Positions 1 through 10,947 of a DNA stretch of 10,947 nucleotides are shown here, in pieces. The notes under the pieces are model-generated. The model searched no databases. It was not told the origin of the DNA and saw only the letters and a list, made by a program, of their open reading frames with translations. The DNA is from an uncultured Holophagales bacterium (GTDB lineage: Bacteria; Acidobacteriota; Thermoanaerobaculia; Multivoradales; UBA5704), in assembly GCA_963842525.1 (NCBI GenBank), contig CAWJGT010000002.1:1-10947 (forward strand), given 5' to 3'. Every line of letters starts with the position of its first letter. Positions within the stretch are counted from its first letter, which is position 1. Position numbers and translations under genes: made by a program.

Positions 1-1211
1 GGCCGCGTTGTGCTGCTGGAAGTGGATGACCAGGAACTCCCGCTCCAACTGTTCGAGCGAGATGCAGAAGTCCCGTGCCGCCAAGCCGGCGGTCATGAGG
101 TTGGCGGTGGAGACGAAGAGCTGGACCGGGTCGAAGCTGGCGTTGCCGCCGGGCAGGCGCTCCCAGGCCCTCTTGAAGGGTTCGAGGAGATACCGGGAGG
201 TCCCGAGCGTCATCAGGTTGGCTGCCTGGTAGCCCCAGTCGAGTGGGTTGAGGGAGATGCTGGCGACCTGCCTCGGCCGGTTGGCGACGAAGATCGCCTC
301 GGCCGGGATCCTGCCCGCCCGGTCCACGGTGAACCGGATGATCTCGATGGCGGCCTCGAACTCGCCGGGACCGTAAGACAGCAGGCCCGGCCGAGGGTTC
401 TTGATGAAGGCGTAGCCGAAGCCGTAGCGGCCCAGCAGGCCGGGCGTGGGCTCTTCCTCGTCGAAGACGAAGTCGCGGTTCATGACGAGGTAGCTCCCTT
501 CGTTGAGCGGCACGACCAGGCTCGGCGCGCCGGGGCCGAAGGGCTGAAAGGAAAATCTGAAGTCGAAGATGCGGACCGAGGGCAGGATCCATTCGAGCTC
601 CGGCCCGATGCGGCGCAGGTCGACGATCTCGTAGCGGTCGCTCTCCGGAAACCCGCGAACCTCGCCGCTGCGCCCTCTGAAAAATGTTGCGAGAAGCCGA
701 AGCCGACCTGCGACGGGTTTTCCTCCGGGCACCAGCTCAGGGGGCGCAGCAGGCCGGGCACCCGGGTCCGGTCCTCGGCCGGGATGTACGCCTCCGGCAG
801 GCGGAAGTGGCTGACGCGCATGAAGTAGCGCAGCACGAACTGGCGGAGCTGGTCGCGTGTCCACTGCACCGCCTTGGCCTTGTCCGCGACCGGCGACTTG
901 GGCTGGTCGTAGAAGAGGGACTGGTAGTTGCCCATGATCGCCATGTCGCGGCCTTCGACCTGGGCGACGTCGAAGAAGCCGAAGCTCTCGTCCGGGCGGT
1001 TGAAGCTGACGGTGAGCGGGAACTTCTGCGCGAAGCTGTCGGTGGCGCAGGCCCGGTCCCACCAGCGCTTGAGATCCAGGCCCCGGCGCAGGTAGAGATC
1101 GGCGCTGTCGAGCACATCCCGCTCGTCCTGCGAGACGCTCCAGGGGGATGCGGCCTGCCTGCCGCAACAGCCGTTTCCGCCCCAGACGCCGGCTTGAGCC
1201 GTCGAGCTCAC
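1..1211 (-). CDS. Uncharacterised protein, >400 aa, 3' end outside the window; one apparent frameshift near 682
   Basis: The GTG start at 1211 overlaps the upstream TGA (GTGA) and has a GAGGAG RBS 8 nt upstream. The ORF-track frame reads naturally to ...VGFGFSQHF. Adding one base to the A5 run at 680-684 gives an open frame to base 1 (FRGRSGEVRGFPESDRYEIVDLRRIGPELEWIL...GRYGFGYAFIKNP...YGPGEFEAAIE...FVANRP...EREFLVIHFQQHNAA) with strongly GC-ending codons. No family recognised. Confidence 0.8.
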
Positions 1212-2113
1212 GTTGGCGTCTCCTCATTCGTCTGCCACGTACAGCGCAGGGTGTATCCGCCGTTGTAGTGCTTCTCGGGGAACCAGAGCGTCGCCCGGCC
1301 TTCATAGCCTGGAAGATCGCCTCGGCGGACGTGGACTCCCTGGCTGCCGTAGTTGTCCACTCCCGACGTGTCGCCCGCCCTTTCGTTCCGCTGGATCTCG
1401 CAGGTGTAGGCCCGTGGATCGGCGCTGACCGGCAGGTATCCGGGCGGCAGGCCGTGCCGGACAAAACCGTAGGTGCGGCTTTCGATGGCGAGCGTGCCTT
1501 CCAGGGTGACGTCGTAGTTTTTCCCGTTCCACGCCTTGGTGAGGGTCACGCGGCCTCTCCCGCCGACCTGCGAGGGGGTGCCGGAGCCGCCCCAAGTCAG
1601 GATCGAAGGCGGCGAAACCGGCGCAGGCGTGACGACGGGCCGCGGCGAAACCCCGCGCAGTGCGTCGCGAATGCCCTCAAGGGCCTCGGTCTTCTTGCTC
1701 TTGCATTTGAGCGGCCAGCGGGCGAGCACCTGGTAGGACACCCGGATGTATCTCTTCTCGTCCAGCGGGATCCGATGCCGGCGGCCGGACTCTCCATCTG
1801 GCTGCAGGTATTCGGCGATGACCCAGGCCGCGAAGCCGTCTGCGGTCATCCCGCCCGTCACCAGGATCTCGCCGGAGCCGTCTGGCAGGATCTTCTCCTC
1901 ACAGCGGCGCACGGAGACGAGGGTGTAACGCACGAGCTTCAGGGAATTGTCCTGAAGATCCCGGGAGTCCCAGTCCGGAGCCGCCGTCTCGCGGGACGCC
2001 GGCTCCCAGAACGGCAAGGGCCGCGAGGTGCCCGAGGTGCCTAGCGCGTGCACCATCTGCCCCACGGTGGCATCGATGAACGTGCCGAGGAAGCTCTGGA
2101 GCGTCCACATCAT
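1208..2113 (-). CDS. Uncharacterised 'DGFAAWVIA'-domain protein B (~301 aa) with a Pro-rich linker and a C-terminal beta-rich extension
   Basis: Intact ORF. The likely start is ATG 2113, coupled to the upstream stop (TGATG), rather than the track's 2215. The core KLVRYTLVSVRRCEEKI...DGFAAWVIAEYLQ...EKRYIRVSYQVLARW is paralogous to the 3264-3967 product. Confidence 0.8.
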   Translation of the reverse strand: MMWTLQSFLGTFIDATVGQMVHALGTSGTSRPLPFWEPASRETAAPDWDSRDLQDNSLKLVRYTLVSVRRCEEKILPDGSGEILVTGGMTADGFAAWVIAEYLQPDGESGRRHRIPLDEKRYIRVSYQVLARWPLKCKSKKTEALEGIRDALRGVSPRPVVTPAPVSPPSILTWGGSGTPSQVGGRGRVTLTKAWNGKNYDVTLEGTLAIESRTYGFVRHGLPPGYLPVSADPRAYTCEIQRNERAGDTSGVDNYGSQGVHVRRGDLPGYEGRATLWFPEKHYNGGYTLRCTWQTNEETPT

Positions 2114-3220
2114 CAGTCCGGAGCTCCTCTGCCCGGTAGGGGGCAACGGAACAGCGCGGCCAACCCGCCGCTCTGCCGGAGCCTCGGGTAGGTCTGCCGC
2201 AGCGCCGTCTCGCAAGGGCCGGTCACGAGGTCGCGCCCGAGCGCCGGCAGGCCCGGACGGGAGCCATCCGGGCGGTACCCGAGGAAGTTGGCCAGGTGAG
2301 GGTCGTGCCCCACGGCGTCGTACCAGATGAGCACGGCCGAGGAGACGCCGTTCGCGAAAGCTTCGCCGGACGCGATCTCATGGCCATGGCGCCACAGCAC
2401 GTCCGCGAGGACCTCGGGGTGCCGGATGTTGACCAGGGTGAGGGCCCAGGACAGGCCGGCCGTCGCGTTGAGCCGGCCCGGCTCGTGCGGCGGCTCGTCG
2501 CACGCCTTGCGGAAGGCGCGGCCGGCGGCGCCACTCCAGGGCAGGGCGTGAGTGGGCGCGAAGTAGAGGCCCCGGCCCACGCCGTGCCAGAAGAGCTCGG
2601 CGAGATCCGGAGCGGCCCATTGCAGCCAATCCCCGAGCCCCTGGACGCGGTACGGGTAAAGGTTCCTCGCCACGAGCCCCAAGGCTTCGGCGGCAAGGTC
2701 CCGATAACCGGGAAGGGCGTTCTCTGCCCAGAGAGCCAGCCAGCCCTCCAGGCCGGTGGCGCTCCGGTCGGTCTCCAGCAGCCGGGTGGCGAAAAAGAGC
2801 GCCGCGCCGGTGTGGAGCGGGATGGCGGCGCGGTCCGGCAGCCTTTCCAGGAACCGCCGCGGAGGGTCCACCGCGGCCCACGCGTAGCCTAGGCCCTCGG
2901 CCGTCCATAGGAACGGGTAGGTGCCGAGCTCCGCGGGATGGGGTATGGCGGAGGCCTGCTGGAAGCGCTCGAACGCTTCGAGCTTGTTGGCGAGCTCGAG
3001 CCATTCGAGCCCCGCCGCGGCCGGCAGAACGGCTCCCGCGGCCGCGGCCGATTGCTGCAGCATCCGCAGGGCCGCCCCCATGCCTTCGCGGATGGCAGTC
3101 TCTCCCAGCGCCGTCGAGACTTGGCGAGCGCCGAGCATCATCATCGAAGAGGACAGATCCATCATCGATTCGGCGAGCTCCTGGAACGTACTCCGGGGCA
3201 CTGTCCACCAGATTGCTCAT
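2113..3220 (-). CDS. Uncharacterised predicted helical 'WHGVGR' protein B (~362-368 aa), paralog of 5566-6909
   Basis: Open frame 3201-2113. The start is either GTG 3201 or ATG 3220, which directly follows AAGGAGG and needs one base removed from a 4-base run near 3195-3198 to read MSNLVDSARSTFQELAESMM. Motifs LWTAEGLG, LHTGAAL, PGY...EALGLVAR, FWHGVGRGLYFAP, AGLSWALTLV and FANGVSSA all match the 5566-6909 product in order. Confidence 0.82.
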
Positions 3221-3263
3221 CCTCCTTCGCACCGGCCCCGGAAGGCCATGGAGATCCGCTCAG

Positions 3264-3967
3264 CTACGCCCTGGCCTCGCTGGGCCGGAATCCCCGGATC
3301 GCTCTCTCGATGTCGCGCAGGACGTCGACCTGCCGGTTGTCGCAGCAGTCTTCCGGACGCCGCCACGACTCCAGGACCCGATGGTAGACCCGGAGATATC
3401 TCTTCTCGGAACGGGAGAGCCGCGGCCCGCTGTCCCTCGATTCCCGCTCTCTGTCGTCCCCCTCTCCGTGGTCCTCCCTTCTCCCTTCGTGCCTGTGCTC
3501 GTGCCTCTCGTCGTCGTCCTCTCCCTGCAGGTAGCGCGCGATGACCCAGGCGGCGAAACCATCATCCTCCATGTCATCCGCGTAGATGACCTGCCCCTCT
3601 TGATGATCCGCTCGTCACAGGGTTTGATCGACACGATCGTGTACTCGACCAAGTTGACGGTCTCGTCGTGATCACAGCAGTTGCAAGATGACATGTGTCG
3701 TTCCTCCTTACTGGCTTCTTGATTGGCTTCTTGGGTCCATGAGTTGTCTCTATGCGTTCCAGCCCCCGGGAATCCCATGCCCAGGGCATTTCCATTTCCA
3801 TACGGGTTCGAGTTGTAGAAACCCTGTCCGCCCCCCGGCTGCTGCATGCCGCGCATCCCTCCGAGCGATCCGAGCGCTCCGATCGCCCCAATCGCTCCAG
3901 TAAATGCGTTGATGAGCCGAAGGCCATCAAAGGGCATCAACATCATCTGAGTGAAAATCTGCGTCAT
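3264..3967 (-). CDS. Uncharacterised 'DGFAAWVIA'-domain protein A (~234 aa) with a Gly/Met-rich N-region, Cys clusters and a charged His-containing insertion; one apparent frameshift near 3595
   Basis: ATG 3967 has GAGGAGGT upstream. The frame runs MTQIFTQMMLMPF...MSSCNCCDHDETVNLVEYTIVSIKPCDERIIKRG. Adding one base to the C4 run at 3594-3597 joins it to QVIYADDMEDDGFAAWVIARYLQ...EKRYLRVYHRVLESW...IERAIRG. The join is supported by colinearity with the uninterrupted paralog at 1208-2113. Confidence 0.78.
3703..3710 (-). promoter_or_regulatory. Internal Shine-Dalgarno (TAAGGAGG) ahead of in-frame ATG 3694
   Basis: The minus strand reads TAAGGAGG-aacgacac-ATG: a perfect 8-nt SD with an 8-nt spacer, in frame with ATG 3967 (codon 92). 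Confidence 0.65.
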
Positions 3968-3976
3968 GTTCCATGC

Positions 3977-3984
3977 ACCTCCTC
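3977..3984 (-). promoter_or_regulatory. Shine-Dalgarno (GAGGAGGT) for the gene starting at 3967
   Basis: Lies in the short gap between the stop at 3994 and ATG 3967. Confidence 0.7.
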
Positions 3985-3993
3985 GCGTCTCAC

Positions 3994-5569
3994 TCACCGG
4001 GTCCTCCCCAGAGCCCACAGCAGAAAGCCTCCGACCACCAGGAAGAGAGTCGCGGAGACCTTCTCTCCTTGACCGGCGAGCGCGCCCGCCTGCACAAAAT
4101 AGTGCAATAGCAGAGCCAATGCGGCCATTACCATCAACGCCGCGGCGAGCACGAGATGCGAGCTTTCCGCGCGCCGCGGCGCACGGCCCTCTCGCGGGGA
4201 AGCCAGCCGCGCATCCTCCTCGGCGCCCCGGGTCAGCAACTCGTCGAGCCGTTGCGGCAGCGACACCATCAGCAGGGCGTAGCGGTCGAGCTGACCGCTC
4301 CAACTGTCGAAGCTCATCGCCTCCCGCACCTGCGAGAAGCCGGCGAGCAGACGAACTCCTGCAAACCTTCGCTCAGCGGATCATACCCCGCGCGAGCCGC
4401 TGGCTCAGGAGGGCTACCGCGAAGAGCCCGCGATAGAGCTCCAGCAGGGGACGGCGCGGGCGGTAGCCGCACTCCCGAGCCGTGCGCGCGTAGAGGAAAA
4501 GGTGCTCGGCCAGGCTCTCACCGCTGGGGGTCCAGGAGCCGTCCCGGAAGGGCACGATCTGGCGCAGGCGCAACCGTAGCTCCTCCTCTGATCTCGCGCC
4601 GTCCTCGCACCATCTCCCGCAACAGAGCGGTGCAGGCAGCGTCCGGGTCGCGCGAGACCACGGCCACCAGAGCCTCCCCTAGATCGGGCGGCAGGGCCGT
4701 GGTCGAGCGGGCGAAAGCGGTACCCTGGAAAGCAATCCGGCCCTCTGGCAGCACGCGCACGTCTTCCGCGCCCAGATCGAGCGGGAACAACCGGCCCGCG
4801 AGCACCTGGCGCCACCAGAGGGCGCAGAAGCTCCGCGCCAGCTCTCGCGAGCCCGCGGGGGCCACCTGGCTCAAGGAGACGCCTCCCGGGTCCGCGACCG
4901 TGAGCAGCCGCGCCGTCGTGAGACGCGGAAGACCGCCGCACGGCCAGGCGTTGAAGACCTCCGCGTCCCCCGCCAGCAGGTCGAGGTCCTGGACCGCGGC
5001 CGGAGATCCGCCTGCTCGTGCAGGTGCTGCCGGAAGCCTTCGAGCGTGTCTTTGACGGCCGCGGCCGTCCAACCCTGGGCCACCAGGGCCTCGCCGGCGA
5101 GCGGCAGCACCTCCAGATCGGCCTCGACTCCCTCAGCCGTGTCCTCCCGGACCAGCCGCACGATCACGGGCTCTCCGCCCGCCAAACGGCCCCGGTGCGC
5201 CTGAAGGAAGAGCCGGGACTCGAACGGCTCCGCCTCCAGATCCGCGAACCCATTCGCGAACGGACGGCCCAACTCGGCCACGATCCGCTCGTGGACCGCG
5301 CCGGCCGGCAGCGGCGGCACCCGATCGGACAGACTGGCCAGCTCGAGGGCGTCGCCTACCGCGAGGAGGTCGACGCGCGAGGCGAGATAGAGCCCGAAGG
5401 CCGAGAAGACCGGGCCGAGCTCCTCGAAAGCCCCGCGCAGGCGGCGGCCGAGCGTGGCCCCGGAAGCCCCAGCCTCCAGGCGGTGCGGACGGCGCAGCAA
5501 CTCCCAGCGGGCGAGGCAGGCCTCGACACCGCTCCGCCGCTGGCGCTCCGCACTGCGCTGCGGGTTCAT
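3994..5569 (-). CDS. UbiB/ABC1/AarF-fold pseudokinase with two C-terminal transmembrane helices (~525 aa); about 4 apparent frameshifts
   Basis: ATG 5569 overlaps the upstream stop (ATGA). The N-terminus RRLRGAFEELGPVFSAFGLYLASRVDLL...LASLSDRVPP...IVAELGRP...FADLEAEPF matches the ABC1 pattern RLRxALEELGPTFIKLGQxLSTRPDLL...LQDxVPP...ELG...FxxFDxEPL. Joined from track ORFs 4871-5569, 4518-5072, 4373-4573 and 3994-4329. It ends in two hydrophobic segments (LVLAAALMVMAALALLLHYFV; ATLFLVVGGFLLWALG). Confidence 0.8.
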
Positions 5570-6909
5570 CTCGCCACCCCTCTCTCGATCTTTGCGACCA
5601 GCGCCGCCAATTCCTGATACCGGAAGATCTCACCCAGACGGCCCTGCCGCTTGAGCACCGGGTAGTAGACGTCGAGCGCGGTCTCGGCGGGGGTCCGCAC
5701 CAGGTGCTGCCACAGGTCCGCCACCCAAGTTCCGGGGGCTGGTACTCGTAGAAGGTGGCGAGGAACGGCGCCTCCGGCGTCGTATCGGCTCGCATGATGG
5801 CCGAGGAGGCCACGCCATTCGCGAAACCGCCATCGCGCGCCAGCTCCTCGCCATAGGGCGAAATCAGCAGCTCGGCGAGGATGCGCGGGTCGCGCTGGGC
5901 GACGAGCACGTAGGCCCAGGCCGCGCCGGCCAGAGCGCTCAGGCGTGCCTGCTCGTCCGGGGCCTCGCGCCAAGCCATCTCGAAGATGAAGGGGTCGGAG
6001 CCCGGCACGAAGTTGACGGGCGCGAAGAAGAGCGCCCGGCCCACCCCGTGCCAGTAATAGCCCAGGACGTCGGGAGCGATGTCGCGCACCGCGCGGTCGA
6101 CCGCCCCAACCAGGCCGGAATGGAACGTGCGGGTCACCAGCCCGAGCGACTCGTAGGCGGCGCCGACGTAGCCGGGCCGCGAATTTTCATGGCAGAGCTG
6201 GAGGATCCGCGCCACGATGCGGCGCAGCTCCGGGTCCGGCGTGTTGGTCCTGACGCCATTCAGGCAGGTCTGCGCGAAGGACAGCCCGATGCCGGCGTGC
6301 AGCATGGCCAGGTTCTTGTCCGGCAGGCCGCTCGTCCTCTCGTCGTCGAGGATGCCGTGGGGGGTGACGCCCTGCTCCCAGAAACTGTCCCCGTAATCGT
6401 GCCCCAGTCCCTCGACCGCCCAGAGGGCGCGGAAGGGACCCAGGCCGTAGGCGCGGCCGAGCAGCTCGTAGAGTGGGAAGGGCGGGTCCGTGGGGACGCC
6501 GATGAGCTTCGCCACGTCCAGAACCAGGCAGAAGACTCCCCCTTGTCCCGCAGCTCGGTCAGGCGAGATCGCCCACGCCGCGGGCAAGTTGGCGGGCGGC
6601 CTCGCCCGAGCGCTGTGCCACGTCGCCCGACGTTTCCACCCAGAGGCGCGGGTCGAGCAGGTCGGGCGTGAGGAAGTTCGGCCCCATCGTCAGCAGGGCG
6701 TTCTGGAAGCACTGGCCGAGTTGGTAGAAGCGGCGCAGACAGCCCTCGGTTCCCAGCGTCTCCGCCGCCGTGCCGGTCACGGCGTCGAAGGCGCTGCTCA
6801 CCCGCTGGCGGTCCCGCGAAAGTGGCGAGAACGCGCGCACGAGTTGCTGGGCGCCGTACAGCGGCATGGCCCACGAGAGGCTCAGAGCCGCTTTGGTCAG
6901 GTCTCGCAT
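5566..6909 (-). CDS. Uncharacterised predicted helical 'WHGVGR' protein A (~447 aa) with an N-terminal 'SWAMPLYG' domain; about 3 apparent frameshifts
   Basis: ATG 6909 has GAGG upstream. Joined pieces: MRDLTKAALSLSWAMPLYG... (6909 to ~6570), LTELRDKGE, VFCLVLDVAKLIG...YWHGVGRALFFAP...FYEYQPP (to ~5735), and ...LVRTPAETALDVYYPVLKRQGRLGEIFRY...ERGVAR* (stop 5566). The joins are supported by the intact paralog at 2113-3220 (ELANKLEAF vs ELRDKGEVF; ETALRQTYPRLRQSGGLAALFR vs ETALDVYYPVLKRQGRLGEIFR). Confidence 0.8.
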
Positions 6910-6924
6910 CAGGGCCTCGACCGG

Positions 6925-7535
6925 TTAGCGGCGGTACCTGTTCGAACGCCTGCCGCCGGAGGACGACTGTCCGCTGCCGGAGGGCTGATAGCCGAGGGCG
7001 GCGGCGGTGGCGGAGGCCGCTTCCGTGACGGCGCGGGCGCCCTCCTCCATCGACCGGGCACCGTAATCCGCCGCACGAGCGCCAGCGTCCGCGGCACGGT
7101 TTTGTATTCCGTGACGCGCCAGTCGGAGTCCGTGGAGCCCCGGCCCTGGCCGCCGGATCCCTGGCCATAGCTGCCGGAGTCCTGACGGGCATAGCCCATG
7201 GAGCTCTGGCCGTAGCCCTGATCGTGGCCGGGGGAACCCTGGCCCTGGCCCTGTCCCGACCGCTGCATCCAGGCGTTGGGATCGAACACCCCGAAGCCGA
7301 GATTGAACATGACGTCCACCATGCTGCGCTGAATCTGGTCGCCGGCGTCGAACATGCTCTTCATGGTCGATCCGAGCTGCTCCCTCATCGAGCCGGTGAC
7401 GGAGTTGAACCCGTCCGCCGCTTCGCCGAACGGGCGGCTCATGTCTCGCGGGAGGGTCAGGTTGAGCATCTGCTTCATGCCATAAAGCGGCATCGCCCAG
7501 GAAAAACTGAGCATCGACTTCGTCAGCTCACGCAT
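6925..7535 (-). CDS. Small uncharacterised protein (~200 aa): Met-rich 'SWAMPLYG' N-domain plus Gly/Gln/Ser-rich low-complexity tail
   Basis: AAAGGAG RBS at 7543-7549 lies 7 nt before ATG 7535. The track frame ends at 6909. After ~7090 an alternative frame with GC-ending codons (ARAADYGARSMEEGARAVTEAASATAAALGYQPSGSGQSSSGGRRSNRYRR*, TAA 6925-6927) looks more natural and leaves room for the next RBS. The 3' end is therefore uncertain. Confidence 0.75.
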
Positions 7536-7542
7536 GGGAGGT

Positions 7543-7549
7543 CTCCTTT
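7543..7549 (-). promoter_or_regulatory. Shine-Dalgarno (AAAGGAG) for the gene starting at 7535
   Basis: 7-nt spacer to ATG, within the gap after the stop at 7564. Confidence 0.7.
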
Positions 7550-7563
7550 CCTGTCGGGCAGGC

Positions 7564-9231
7564 TCATATACACCTGCGCAAGGTTTTCAGAAACATCGCC
7601 AGCGACGCCGCCGCGATGAGGATTTCCGCTGTAAACAGGTTGGCGCCGATCGCCGCGCTTTCGCCGGTCACCGTAATGAGCACCGAGATGGCGAGCGTGA
7701 CGGAGGCGAACCGGAAACGCCTGGAGCGCCGGCACGCCGGTGGCCGGCCGGTCCGCCGGCAAGGTTTGCGGGGTCCGCTCGCGGCGCGTCATCCGGTCGA
7801 GAGACTGGAGGGCGCGCGCACCCCCGTCCTGCGCCAGATTGCCGGTGGCCGCGGACCACTCGACCATACGGTCGTAGGAGAAGAGCATCCGCCAGCCTTC
7901 CTGCCGCAGGTGCCGGTCGCAGGCCGCGGCGAGATAGCTGCCGACGTCGAATCCGGGAGCGAAACGGGTGATGGAGCCCGTCGATCGCGATGGACGAGCG
8001 GATGTACTTGACGACGTCCTGCTCGGGCCAGATCCGTGGTGGGCCCGCGACAGCCGCAGCATGTCGAGCATCACCAGAGTGAAGTTCTTCTTCAGCTCGC
8101 CGCTTCCTTGCCCTTGAGCTCGTACCAGGTATCGGCCTGCCTCTCCACGCCGGCGCGGAAGCCCTCGGGATGGGAGTTGCCGTCCATCACCGCAACCTTG
8201 AAGAACGCTCGGCACATGGCGTCGAGATCGCCTCGCGTGTAGGCGAGGGTGAGGCCCACCAGGTACCGGCGCGAGTGGCGGCTGAGCACTCCGGTGATGC
8301 CGAAGTCGACGTAGCCAACGACGTTGTCCGGCAGGATCATGAGGTTCGCCGGGTGGAGGTCCGCGTGGAACATGCCGTGGAGGAAGGCGTCGCCGAGGAA
8401 GTTGTCGATGACGTTGCGGGCGAACTCGTCGGGCTCGAGCCGGACAGCTCCAGGCGGCGCAGAGTCATCTCGTCCCCGGTTTCACGGGCGCGCAGGTAGC
8501 CCAGGAGCGTCGCCCCCTCGAAGAACTCGGCCACCAGCGTGCGGCGGCTGACACAGCTCGGCAGCAGCTTGGGCACGCGCTCGGCGGGGTTGCCCCGCTG
8601 TTACTCGGAGTTGCTCCATGTAGCGCGCCTCGCTGCGGTAGTCGAGCTCTTCGGCGGTCCAGACGATGAACTCGGTCAAACGGCTGACCGCCCAGTAGAA
8701 GAGGCGCAGGCGCAGGTGGCGGATGAGCCAGAGCATCGAGCTCATCAGGCGGATGTCGCCGGAGAACTCGACGTCGACGGACGGCCGCTGGACCTGGACC
8801 GCGAGCTTCTGCCCGTTCAGGTAGGCCACGTGGACCTGTCCGATCGAGGCGGTGGCGAGCGGCTCCGTCTCGATCTGGTCGAAGTCTCGGAAGGCCGCTT
8901 GCCCAGCTCCTCCAGGAAGGTCCGCTCGACCTCCTCGTACGGGAAAGGTGCCACCCGGTCGAGCAGATTGGATGGGCTTCGCAGACTTCGAAGGAGACGA
9001 TGTCCGGCTGAAGCGCCAGCATCTGGCCGAGCTTGATGAACGTCCCGCCCATGTCCTCCAAAAGGACGCGCAGCCGCTCCGGGCGCGAGAGATTGCCCGG
9101 CGGCAGACGCCGCGCCAGCCACCCCAACCAGGGCCAGCCTCCAGGCGCGGCCCCAGCAGCATGGAGAGACCGTGCGCGATCAGCACGCGCAGGATTCTGC
9201 CCAGGCGACGCGCGTTAGCGAGGACGGTCAT
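7564..9231 (-). CDS. UbiB/ABC1/AarF family atypical protein kinase-like protein with C-terminal hydrophobic helices (~555 aa); many (about 9) apparent frameshifts
   Basis: Family motifs occur in the right order across frames: RRLGRILRVLIAHGL; ERLRVLLEDMGGTFIKLGQMLALQPD (KxGQ, ~9023-9040); LLDRVAPFP; EPLATASIGQVH (Ala-rich loop); LAVQVQRP; EELDYRSEARYME; LVAEFFEG; GMFHADLHPANL (HADLHPAN at 8344-8367); YVDFG (DFG at 8299-8307). The hydrophobic end ...LAISVLITVTGESAAIGANLFTAEILIAAASLAMFLKTLRRCI* has its stop at 7564-7566. Not labelled ubiB because no ubi genes are nearby. Confidence 0.9.
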
Positions 9232-9315: not shown

Positions 9316-10947
9316 CTAGACGCGATGACTTTCCTCGGCCGCCGCCATTTGGGGATTGTTTGCGAATGAGCGAAAGAAGATGGACTTCCGCCGCACCAGC
9401 ATCTCGTCGATCGCTGACTGCATCCTGGCCTTCACCTCGCGGCTGATCTCACGCACGATCGAGGGGTCTTCCGCCGCCTCGGGACCGTACGTCTCCTGGA
9501 CCGGCATCGGCTCCAGGAACCGTGTGTGCCACTCGAGGAAGGGGCAGGCCGGGGAACGGGGAGTTGGGCCGAGCGGCAGGTAGAGCCACTCGGTGGCGCG
9601 CTTGACCCACTTCCAGTCGAGCCGGCCCCAGATGGGGTAGATCTCGGCGCTCCCCACGGTGACGAAGGGCACGATCGGGGCACGGTTCCTGAGCGCCATC
9701 TTCACGTACTCGTCACGCCCGAACTTGCCGAGCTTGTAGGCTTGACGGTAGGGGGTGAAGGCGCCGTGGATGCCCTCGGGGAACATACCCAGGAGCCCTT
9801 CCCGTTCCAGCACCCAGTCGGCGTTCTCCTGGCAGGCCACGATGCCGCCCAGCTTGGTCATGTAGTTGGCCAGGAAGGGGTTCTTGACGAGGCAGGGGTG
9901 GATCAGGAAGCGCGGGACCCGTCCGGTGGCCCGCTTGACGGCCACCAGGGCCATGACGCCGTCCCGGGCATGAAGCCCCGGTGAACGCCGGTGACCACCA
10001 CCCTACCCTGCCGCGGCACGTTCTCCAGACCCTGGTACTCGATGCGCCAGTAGTGGTCGTGGAGGAAGCGGAAGAGGGTGCGCTCATAGGCCCCGATATA
10101 GTCGAGGTCGAGCCCGAAATCGTCCGGCTCCGGGGCTTCTCCATCGCTGCCAAAGGCGGCCAGCACGGCCTCGGCGCTCGTCTTCTTCGGGACGAACCCC
10201 AATTCGCGCTCGATCGTCTTTCCGGAGACGGTCGCGTTGTGTCGCAAGTAGTCGAGCCAGCCGCCGCCCCAACCGAAAGGAATCCGCCGCACGCCCGCCA
10301 GGCGCAACGCGACGCGCACCGGCACGGCTCCCCGGGGAGCGACGTGGTAGACGCCGGGCTTGCCGGCACCGTCTCCACCGCGCACCGCACGGCCTCGGCC
10401 AGATCCTCGGGGGCGAGGACCTGGAGCGCGGGGTCGAACCCCGGCGGCACCACGGCCGAACGGCCGCGCAGCATCATCGAGAGGGGATCGGCTCCGTCGC
10501 GGGTCCCCACCGGGGCGGGGCGCAGAATGATGCGCTCCCAATCCGGCAGCTTCGCCGCGGCCAAGGCCTCGAGATCCCGCCAGGCGCGGGCAACGGGATG
10601 GTTCCCTTCCGGCCGATAGGACTCCGTCACGTAGCCAGGGTTGTGATGATGGGGATCGAGGGCTGCGGCGGAAGAGAGCAGGACGAGCCTGCCGGTTCCC
10701 TGGGCAGCGAGGCCCTCGAAGGCGGTGCCGGCCGACTCCAGGTCCGGTCCGGCCTCAGTGAGCCGGGGACAATAGACGACGGTTCCGGCCTCCCCCACTC
10801 CCTCCACCCGCCCAGCCAGGAGAGTCGTTACAGAGTCTTCGGGGCCTTCCGAGGATAAATCTTGCCATGCCGTTGCTTCCTTCAGGCCCGGCGAGCCGCG
10901 CAGGACCGTCTGCGCCACCCGCTGGGCTGAAACGATCACCGGAGTGA
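9316..10947 (-). CDS. Fusion of an extended-SDR/NAD-dependent epimerase-like domain and a lysophospholipid/glycerolipid acyltransferase (LPLAT, PlsC superfamily, MGAT-like); 5' end probably outside the window; frameshifts near 10370 and 9965
   Basis: SDR-like: LVLLSSAAA...NPGYVTES, IILRPAPV, GFDPALQVLAPEDLAEAV, PGVYHVAP, IERELGFVP. Acyltransferase: DDFGLD, YWRIEYQGLENVPRQGRVVVTGVHRGFMP[W]DG (catalytic His...Asp block, restored by one T near 9965), GMFPEG, GKFGR, MALRNRAPIVPFVTVGSAE. The two domains are continuous within a single frame (track ORF 9903-10541). Confidence 0.85.

Follow-up and report, generated by a model that had tools for sequence, protein, structure and literature searches.

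Is the UbiB/ABC1-like gene at positions 3994..5569 (minus strand), which an earlier note on this DNA described as a pseudokinase encoded in one operon with a near-canonical ABC1 kinase, a selected partner protein that has exchanged its catalytic motifs, or a gene falling apart? The window analyzed here is an entire contig of 10,947 nt (C2, GC content 0.68) from a genome of 9.95 Mb in 34 contigs. The following genes were recognized in it, all on the minus strand and listed from high to low coordinates, with frameshifts counted against the proteins of a second cluster in the same genome:

9316..10750, minus strand: acyltransferase of the PlsC/DAGAT type, frame-broken, upstream of the motif-complete UbiB gene (weak Pfam DAGAT/Acyltransferase match on 9316-9954)
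7567-9231, minus strand: motif-complete UbiB/ABC1 partner (Pfam ABC1 E-value 2.6e-19 on one piece), nine frameshifts
6989..7568, minus strand: famB, a small protein whose N-terminus carries the conserved motif MRELTKSMLSFSWAM, three frameshifts
5556..6998, minus strand: famBA, with a famB-like N-terminus and a famA domain, five frameshifts and a stop that overlaps the beginning of the degenerate UbiB gene
3994..5569, minus strand: degenerate UbiB/ABC1-like gene (Pfam ABC1 match on a piece; alignment to the paralogue), seven frameshifts
3258..3967, minus strand: famC, conserved, just downstream of the degenerate UbiB gene, one frameshift
2113..3201, minus strand: famA paralogue of 362 aa, intact, no frameshifts (229 identical residues in 386 columns against the famA protein of the second cluster)
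1208..2215, minus strand: second famC-type gene, 335 aa
1..1211, minus strand: famD, START-like, found by tblastn, in at least two frames, with its 3' end cut by the contig end

The degenerate gene starts with an ATG at 5569-5567, which overlaps the famBA stop as ATGA (such overlaps join neighbouring genes of the cluster), and ends with a TGA at 3996-3994. Its length of 1576 nt is not divisible by 3, and its recognizable pieces (4871-5569, 4518-5072, and 3994-4329) each differ in frame. A single open reading frame across 3994-5569 was ruled out, as the sequence is spread over three frames and requires seven shifts. The piece at 4871-5569 is matched by Pfam ABC1 (PF03109) with an E-value of 1.1e-9 and 38.2 bits, above the gathering score of 22.9, as the earlier note had proposed to check. 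The same note held that the motif replacements lie within well-aligned frames and owe nothing to indels; this does not stand, since seven shifts are needed to align 3994..5569 with its intact paralogue, and the breakage of the frame had been overlooked. The replacements themselves were all found on the minus strand as quoted, in differing frames of the window and not within one. The motif sites, assigned from the sequence and the corresponding family columns, and other features of the degenerate gene are:

5390..5407, minus strand: FSAFGL at the place of the KxGQ motif
5195-5221, minus strand: ESRLFLQAH where the Ala-rich loop ATASIGQVH is expected
5150-5167, minus strand: VIVR (within VIVRLV) where VAVK is expected
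4758-4787, minus strand: FPLDLGAEDV where the catalytic loop HADLHPAN is expected
4713-4736, minus strand: IAFQG (within IAFQGTAF) where DFG is expected
4532..4564, minus strand: RQIVPFRDGSW, a family-specific invariant loop in the alignment and the predicted partner contact in the co-fold
4093-4155 and 4009-4059, minus strand: two hydrophobic C-terminal helices (membrane hairpin)

The last of these bear out the claim that the C-terminal transmembrane pair is kept, and an Asp is retained at the catalytic-base position in the window copy.

The window is collinear with positions 176,565-185,834 of another contig of the same genome (C34) at about 70-78% nucleotide identity, and in this paralogous cluster every gene is intact. 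Alignment of the C34 proteins to the window by frameshift-aware dynamic programming gave 25 frameshifts over six genes of the 10.9-kb contig. After frame correction, none of the six contains a premature in-frame stop, that of famC being the alignment end only. In particular, the degenerate gene has 311 identical residues in 548 columns against its C34 paralogue and the motif-complete partner 377 in 565, both with zero stops. Shifts in the degenerate gene are predicted near 4985, 4962, 4939, 4928, 4609 (2 nt), 4382, and 4356. Contigs of four soil or rhizosphere sequencing runs from four studies, compared over 3900-5700 and about 90-96% alike, contain inserted bases behind positions 4352, 4384, 4605 (2 nt), 4923, 4937, 4951, and 4999, that is, one insertion beside each of the seven predicted shifts, 8 nt in total. 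With these eight bases restored, the degenerate gene becomes a frame of 1584 nt encoding about 527 aa. As the run contigs are relatives at about 90-96% identity, the intactness that they show is that of close relatives and not of the window copy itself; in a search of runs with words of the window, the best run contained at most 0.13 of them. Short repeats occur at just three of the seven gaps (two doubled bases and one CG repeat), a mixed outcome of the homopolymer test. Four further ABC1 genes of this genome (L001-L004) have unbroken frames. Since the shifts recur in several genes of the cluster without premature stops, and the relatives carry the extra bases at all seven places, the seven breaks in the degenerate gene are very probably errors in the consensus of a contig with weak support and not decay. 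The window is a poor-quality example of the pairing of a live and a degenerate UbiB protein.

The contig may be a second cluster of this genome or a mis-binned contig. If it came from a different, related organism, the two-cluster genome would be an artefact and the gene a normal orthologue, an origin that we regard as possible though on the whole unlikely. The contig is collinear with, and at 75-82% nucleotide identity closer to, the clusters of three other metagenome-assembled genomes (L011, L010, and L026) than to C34, and this similarity includes the acyltransferase at 9374-10747; moreover, the estimated contamination of the bin is 3.36%, and relatives have one copy each. Against such an origin, the GC content of the contig agrees with that of the genome, and the C34 copy is the nearest degenerate-family sequence in the protein tree.

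The motif replacements of the window copy recur in the intact C34 copy (541 aa), which matches Pfam ABC1 with an E-value of 1.2e-21 and 77.4 bits over profile positions 2-204 of 244. Used as a query, it retrieved 129 proteins at an E-value of at most 1e-5; among the 120 matches listed, identity is 38-61% (100% for the query's own cluster), most are about 500-600 aa long, and the named ones are labelled as AarF/UbiB-type or ubiquinone-biosynthesis proteins, with two "hypothetical". Of the listed matches, 116 were aligned together with the live partner. The Lys of KxGQ is replaced by Ala in 80 of the 116 and by Ser in 16 (Lys in none), and its Gln by Leu in 68 and Arg in 25 (Gln in none). The Ala-rich loop reads ESRLLx and is followed by a Gln invariant in 116 of 116; the Gln and the His of this loop are retained in the family. 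At the beta3 Lys, Arg is found in 73 proteins and Lys in 31. The catalytic His is Pro in all 116, the catalytic Asp is Glu in 68, Gly in 15, Asp in 14, and Ala in 11, the Asn column holds Asp (41), Gly (30), and Asn (25), and the Asp of DFG is mostly Gly (80) or Ala (25), with Asp in two proteins. Consistently, none of 60 full-length degenerate orthologues matches the HxDxHxxN or the Ala-rich loop pattern. Thus, the degenerate motifs are shared by 116 homologues at 38-61% identity, as the earlier note had asked of the orthologues.

The replacements in this family follow a regular pattern. Of 91 positions invariant in 39 partners, the degenerate family keeps 18, and at others one invariant residue has given way to another, each in 116 of 116 proteins (Q73R, F278W, H289P, and Y370W); such swaps suggest an altered function rather than decay. 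In addition, R351, Q352, P355, F356, R357, D358, and W361 are invariant or nearly so in the family alignment. The dN/dS ratio (Nei-Gojobori) in the 14 closest pairs is 0.12-0.52, well under 1, which agrees with the purifying selection that the earlier note had proposed to look for; the partner, compared between the same genomes, has 0.08-0.41. In the FastTree tree of 118 sequences the degenerate family forms one clade (61 of 61, support 0.998) with a mean depth of 1.66, about double that of the partner clade (0.82). A recent tandem duplication of the partner is unsupported, as the degenerate-family profile scores another UbiB paralogue at 216 bits and the neighbouring one at 128; the degenerate gene is therefore no recent copy of the neighbour.

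Modelled with AlphaFold, the C34 copy (pLDDT 84.6, pTM 0.76) shows the UbiB fold, with C-terminal helices at residues 485-509 and 517-539. Its best 12 Foldseek matches in the PDB are all COQ8A, MSMEG_1954, or Rv3197. The degenerate family shares with UbiB/COQ8A (ADCK3) the fold (7udq_B, E-value 7.1e-13, TM-score 0.72 on the target), the Pfam domain, and the N-terminal KxGQ-domain scaffold residues G60, G67, D75, and loop Q131; it differs in the Lys and Gln of KxGQ, the Ala-rich loop, the catalytic His, Asp, and Asn, and the Asp of DFG. Neither member of the pair reaches the cut-off of the UbiB equivalog TIGR01982 (487.55), the degenerate copy scoring 121.2 bits and the live partner 240 bits.

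The other half of the pair is the ABC1 gene at 7567-9231, which, as had been stated, lies in the same cluster and contains FIKLGQ, ATASIGQVH, HADLHPAN, and VDFGITG. At 8782-8805 (minus strand) the window partner reads LAVQVQRP, so that its beta3 (VAVK) Lys is a Gln, at a position occupied by Lys without exception in the other partners (39 of 39); this may be a base error of the contig or a real change.

A scan with one genome per species yielded 65 loci, all in metagenome-assembled genomes. By record title, Acidobacteriota contribute 52 of the 65, including 20 in Thermoanaerobaculia, 11 in Blastocatellia/Pyrinomonadales, two in Holophagales, one in Vicinamibacterales, and 18 of unspecified class; Latescibacterota contribute four, and nine bear another label or none. 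The degenerate gene could be scored in 64 of 65 loci, 53 of which extend at least 4.2 kb upstream of it. In 52 of these 53, a live-type ABC1 gene is located upstream on the same strand at a distance of 0-3.4 kb, locus L064 being the sole exception without an upstream partner. KxGQ, the beta3 Lys, HxDxHxxN, and DFG are present in all 53 full-length partners. Among 31 related genomes, a full-length degenerate-family match was found in 12, as a single copy in each except the genome studied here; the raw tally of 29 of 31 counts cross-hits to ordinary UbiB paralogues. In four loci of Latescibacterota (L021, L039, L042, and L050) the live and the degenerate UbiB genes adjoin with gaps of 0-62 nt and without famB or famBA between them, and this direct adjacency points to the pair as the core unit.

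Judging by its motifs, the degenerate family appears to have lost the capacity to handle ATP. The retention of Lys or Arg at beta3, of both Gln and His in the loop, and of the Asp in the window copy leaves room for binding of a nucleotide or another ligand, which these residues may still permit. A stronger version of this idea holds that the protein is not dead, its rebuilt pocket binding a nucleotide or lipid, and that it either performs non-canonical chemistry of its own or works without the UbiB encoded next to it. SelO, among other pseudokinase folds, turned out to be an enzyme, and here not only do the loop Gln and His and the beta3 Lys or Arg persist, the replaced positions are themselves invariant. 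However, the metal-binding positions vary (Glu, Gly, Asp, or Ala for the catalytic Asp; Asp, Gly, or Asn for the Asn), 105 of 116 proteins have Gly or Ala for the Asp of DFG, and the partner accompanies the gene almost without exception (52 of 53), so that we find this version rather improbable. A truly decaying duplicate, belonging to a pseudogenized second cluster of the same genome, might account for the 25 frameshifts across six genes, for a second copy seen in this genome only among 31 relatives, for the Lys-to-Gln change of the partner, and for the scarcity of short repeats at the gaps, but is very unlikely given that premature stops are absent from all six genes once the frames are corrected, that identity to the paralogues (311 of 548 and 377 of 565 columns) falls within the range of intact orthologues, that near-identical sequences of four other runs restore the frame at all seven places, and that the gene at 2113-3201 is fully intact.

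The kinase-pseudokinase reading of the earlier note is best considered for the family as a whole, and at this level it is supported. Its inference of a dedicated inactive partner gains from the shared motifs, the dN/dS values, the pairing in 52 of 53 loci, and the co-fold described below, with inactivity deduced from the sequence and binding from a model.

The pair is embedded in a conserved gene order: acyltransferase, live UbiB, famB, famBA, degenerate UbiB, famC, famA, (famC), and famD. An intact orthologue of the acyltransferase (L011:3615-5081) matches PF01553 with an E-value of 4.1e-8, and relatives of this gene occur in 53 of 66 loci. No family in Pfam or NCBIfam was found for famA, famB, famC, or famD; Pfam matched none of 30 famA and none of 27 famD members, and a sequence profile search of the PDB gave no match for any of the four. 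In the Atlas clusters nearest to famA, 11-13% of the members contain PF08012 (DUF1702), which serves as a lead only, and nothing relevant was found in the DUF1702 literature. For famD, the Atlas search gave a best score of 0.84 and was unusable. The model of a famD orthologue (L012:13355-14644, pLDDT 81.1) has a START/Bet v 1 helix-grip fold, resembling the START domain of MLN64 (Z-score 11.7, rmsd 4.2, 205 of 214 residues aligned) and a carotenoid-binding protein (Z-score 10.9); nearly all of its best 50 matches are of the START/Bet v 1 helix-grip type, and its Foldseek match is weak. The flanks of the L011 cluster (262-3611 and 14577-16154) encode an HMG-CoA reductase, a phytoene-desaturase-like FAD oxidoreductase, and a patatin-like phospholipase, and of 66 loci, 24 have a relative of the first, 28 of the second, and 36 of the third. 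With a START-like protein, an acyltransferase, lipases, and these flanking genes as neighbours, the setting of the pair is lipid metabolism.

Modelling of the pair, as suggested by the earlier note, was performed with residues 1-500 of the partner and 1-470 of the degenerate protein, using alignments made for this analysis and with the membrane hairpins left out. The ipSAE values were 0.60, 0.62, and 0.65, and the best of three controls gave 0.00; the co-fold (0.62) thus reached a mark attained by 116 of 157 solved complexes and two of 215 mismatched pairs. The pLDDT of the partner is at least 78, and the agreement of contacts between runs at least 53%. Confident contacts connect residues 351-357 of the degenerate protein, its RQxVPFRD loop, with partner residues 315-322, just past DFG, and further with 286-287, 345-348, and 402-404; on the degenerate side, residues 351-354 and 356-357 form the predicted interface. 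The model supports, as a prediction, binding of the live and the degenerate UbiB proteins to each other. The score may also reflect a memory of UbiB crystal dimers.

Taken jointly, the best explanation is a selected degenerate subfamily that forms a heterodimer with its live partner in a lipid operon, the breaks in the window being errors; we give it a probability of about 0.7. According to this explanation, the degenerate gene would belong to an old monophyletic subfamily of the UbiB/ABC1 fold whose ATP-binding and catalytic motifs have been replaced, many of the replacements being invariant, and which is apparently co-inherited and co-transcribed with a motif-complete ATPase or kinase of the UbiB type. 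The two proteins would form a heterodimer, each held by its C-terminal membrane hairpin, in which the RQxVPFRD loop of the degenerate subunit may dock on the segment of the live subunit just past DFG and thereby tune or direct its ATPase. At the centre of a lipid-handling operon, the pair would be accompanied by a START-like carrier, an acyltransferase, and lipases.

More tentatively, one may imagine an obligate membrane-anchored heterodimer, with the loop gating the mouth of the live active site, as the ATP-driven engine of an unrecognized bacterial system for extraction or handover of a hydrophobic lipid, possibly an isoprenoid. If real, this system would further comprise the START-like carrier, the proteins headed by a common docking helix, the acyltransferase, and the lipases, and would be a bacterial counterpart of the plastoglobule ABC1K1/ABC1K3 pair or of the UbiB-dependent lipid distribution in mitochondria. 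The activity of the UbiB family is still debated, with ATPase, kinase, and lipid extractor as the options (PMC8956952).

The heterodimer that we favour has partial precedents. Like LKB1-STRAD, a eukaryotic kinase-pseudokinase signalling pair, it includes a degenerate paralogue under selection as the partner of an active one; it differs in belonging to another kinase-like branch and in being bacterial, operon-encoded, membrane-anchored, and located among lipid-metabolism genes. The Arabidopsis proteins ABC1K1 and ABC1K3 both retain catalytic motifs. These two homologous atypical kinases of plastoglobules are reported to interact, with possible mutual regulation (PMC7109304). In both cases the partners are UbiB-family paralogues, interacting on a lipid body in the plant and only predicted to bind here; the plant pair is eukaryotic and not encoded in an operon, whereas the bacterial pair has one motif-dead member. 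The mycobacterial UbiB-like ATPases Rv3197 and MSMEG_1954 (MABP-1), with solved structures, are among the top fold matches (7cyr, E-value 9.5e-13), and the degenerate copy scores 26.5 bits on NF050082, where the cut-off is 800. We know of no dead partner of these proteins, and in the texts reached, some in part only, a full-text literature search returned no description of degenerate bacterial UbiB partners. The pair would carry the principle of an active enzyme with a pseudo-enzyme partner into the bacterial UbiB branch. The operon, which holds both proteins beside candidate lipid carriers and enzymes, offers a compact genetic system for studying partner, ligand, and substrate.

Finally, an N-terminal motif of about 25 residues (beginning with MRELTKSMLSFSWAM) is found in famB, famBA, and a GDSL-lipase-like protein of C34, perhaps as a common helix for docking or targeting. 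Its carriers are located as follows:

6909-7535, minus strand, in the window
6559-6909, minus strand, in the window
3-1703, minus strand, in locus L009

The same motif also heads proteins of about 620 aa in L027, L028, and L033, and one of about 480 aa in L055.
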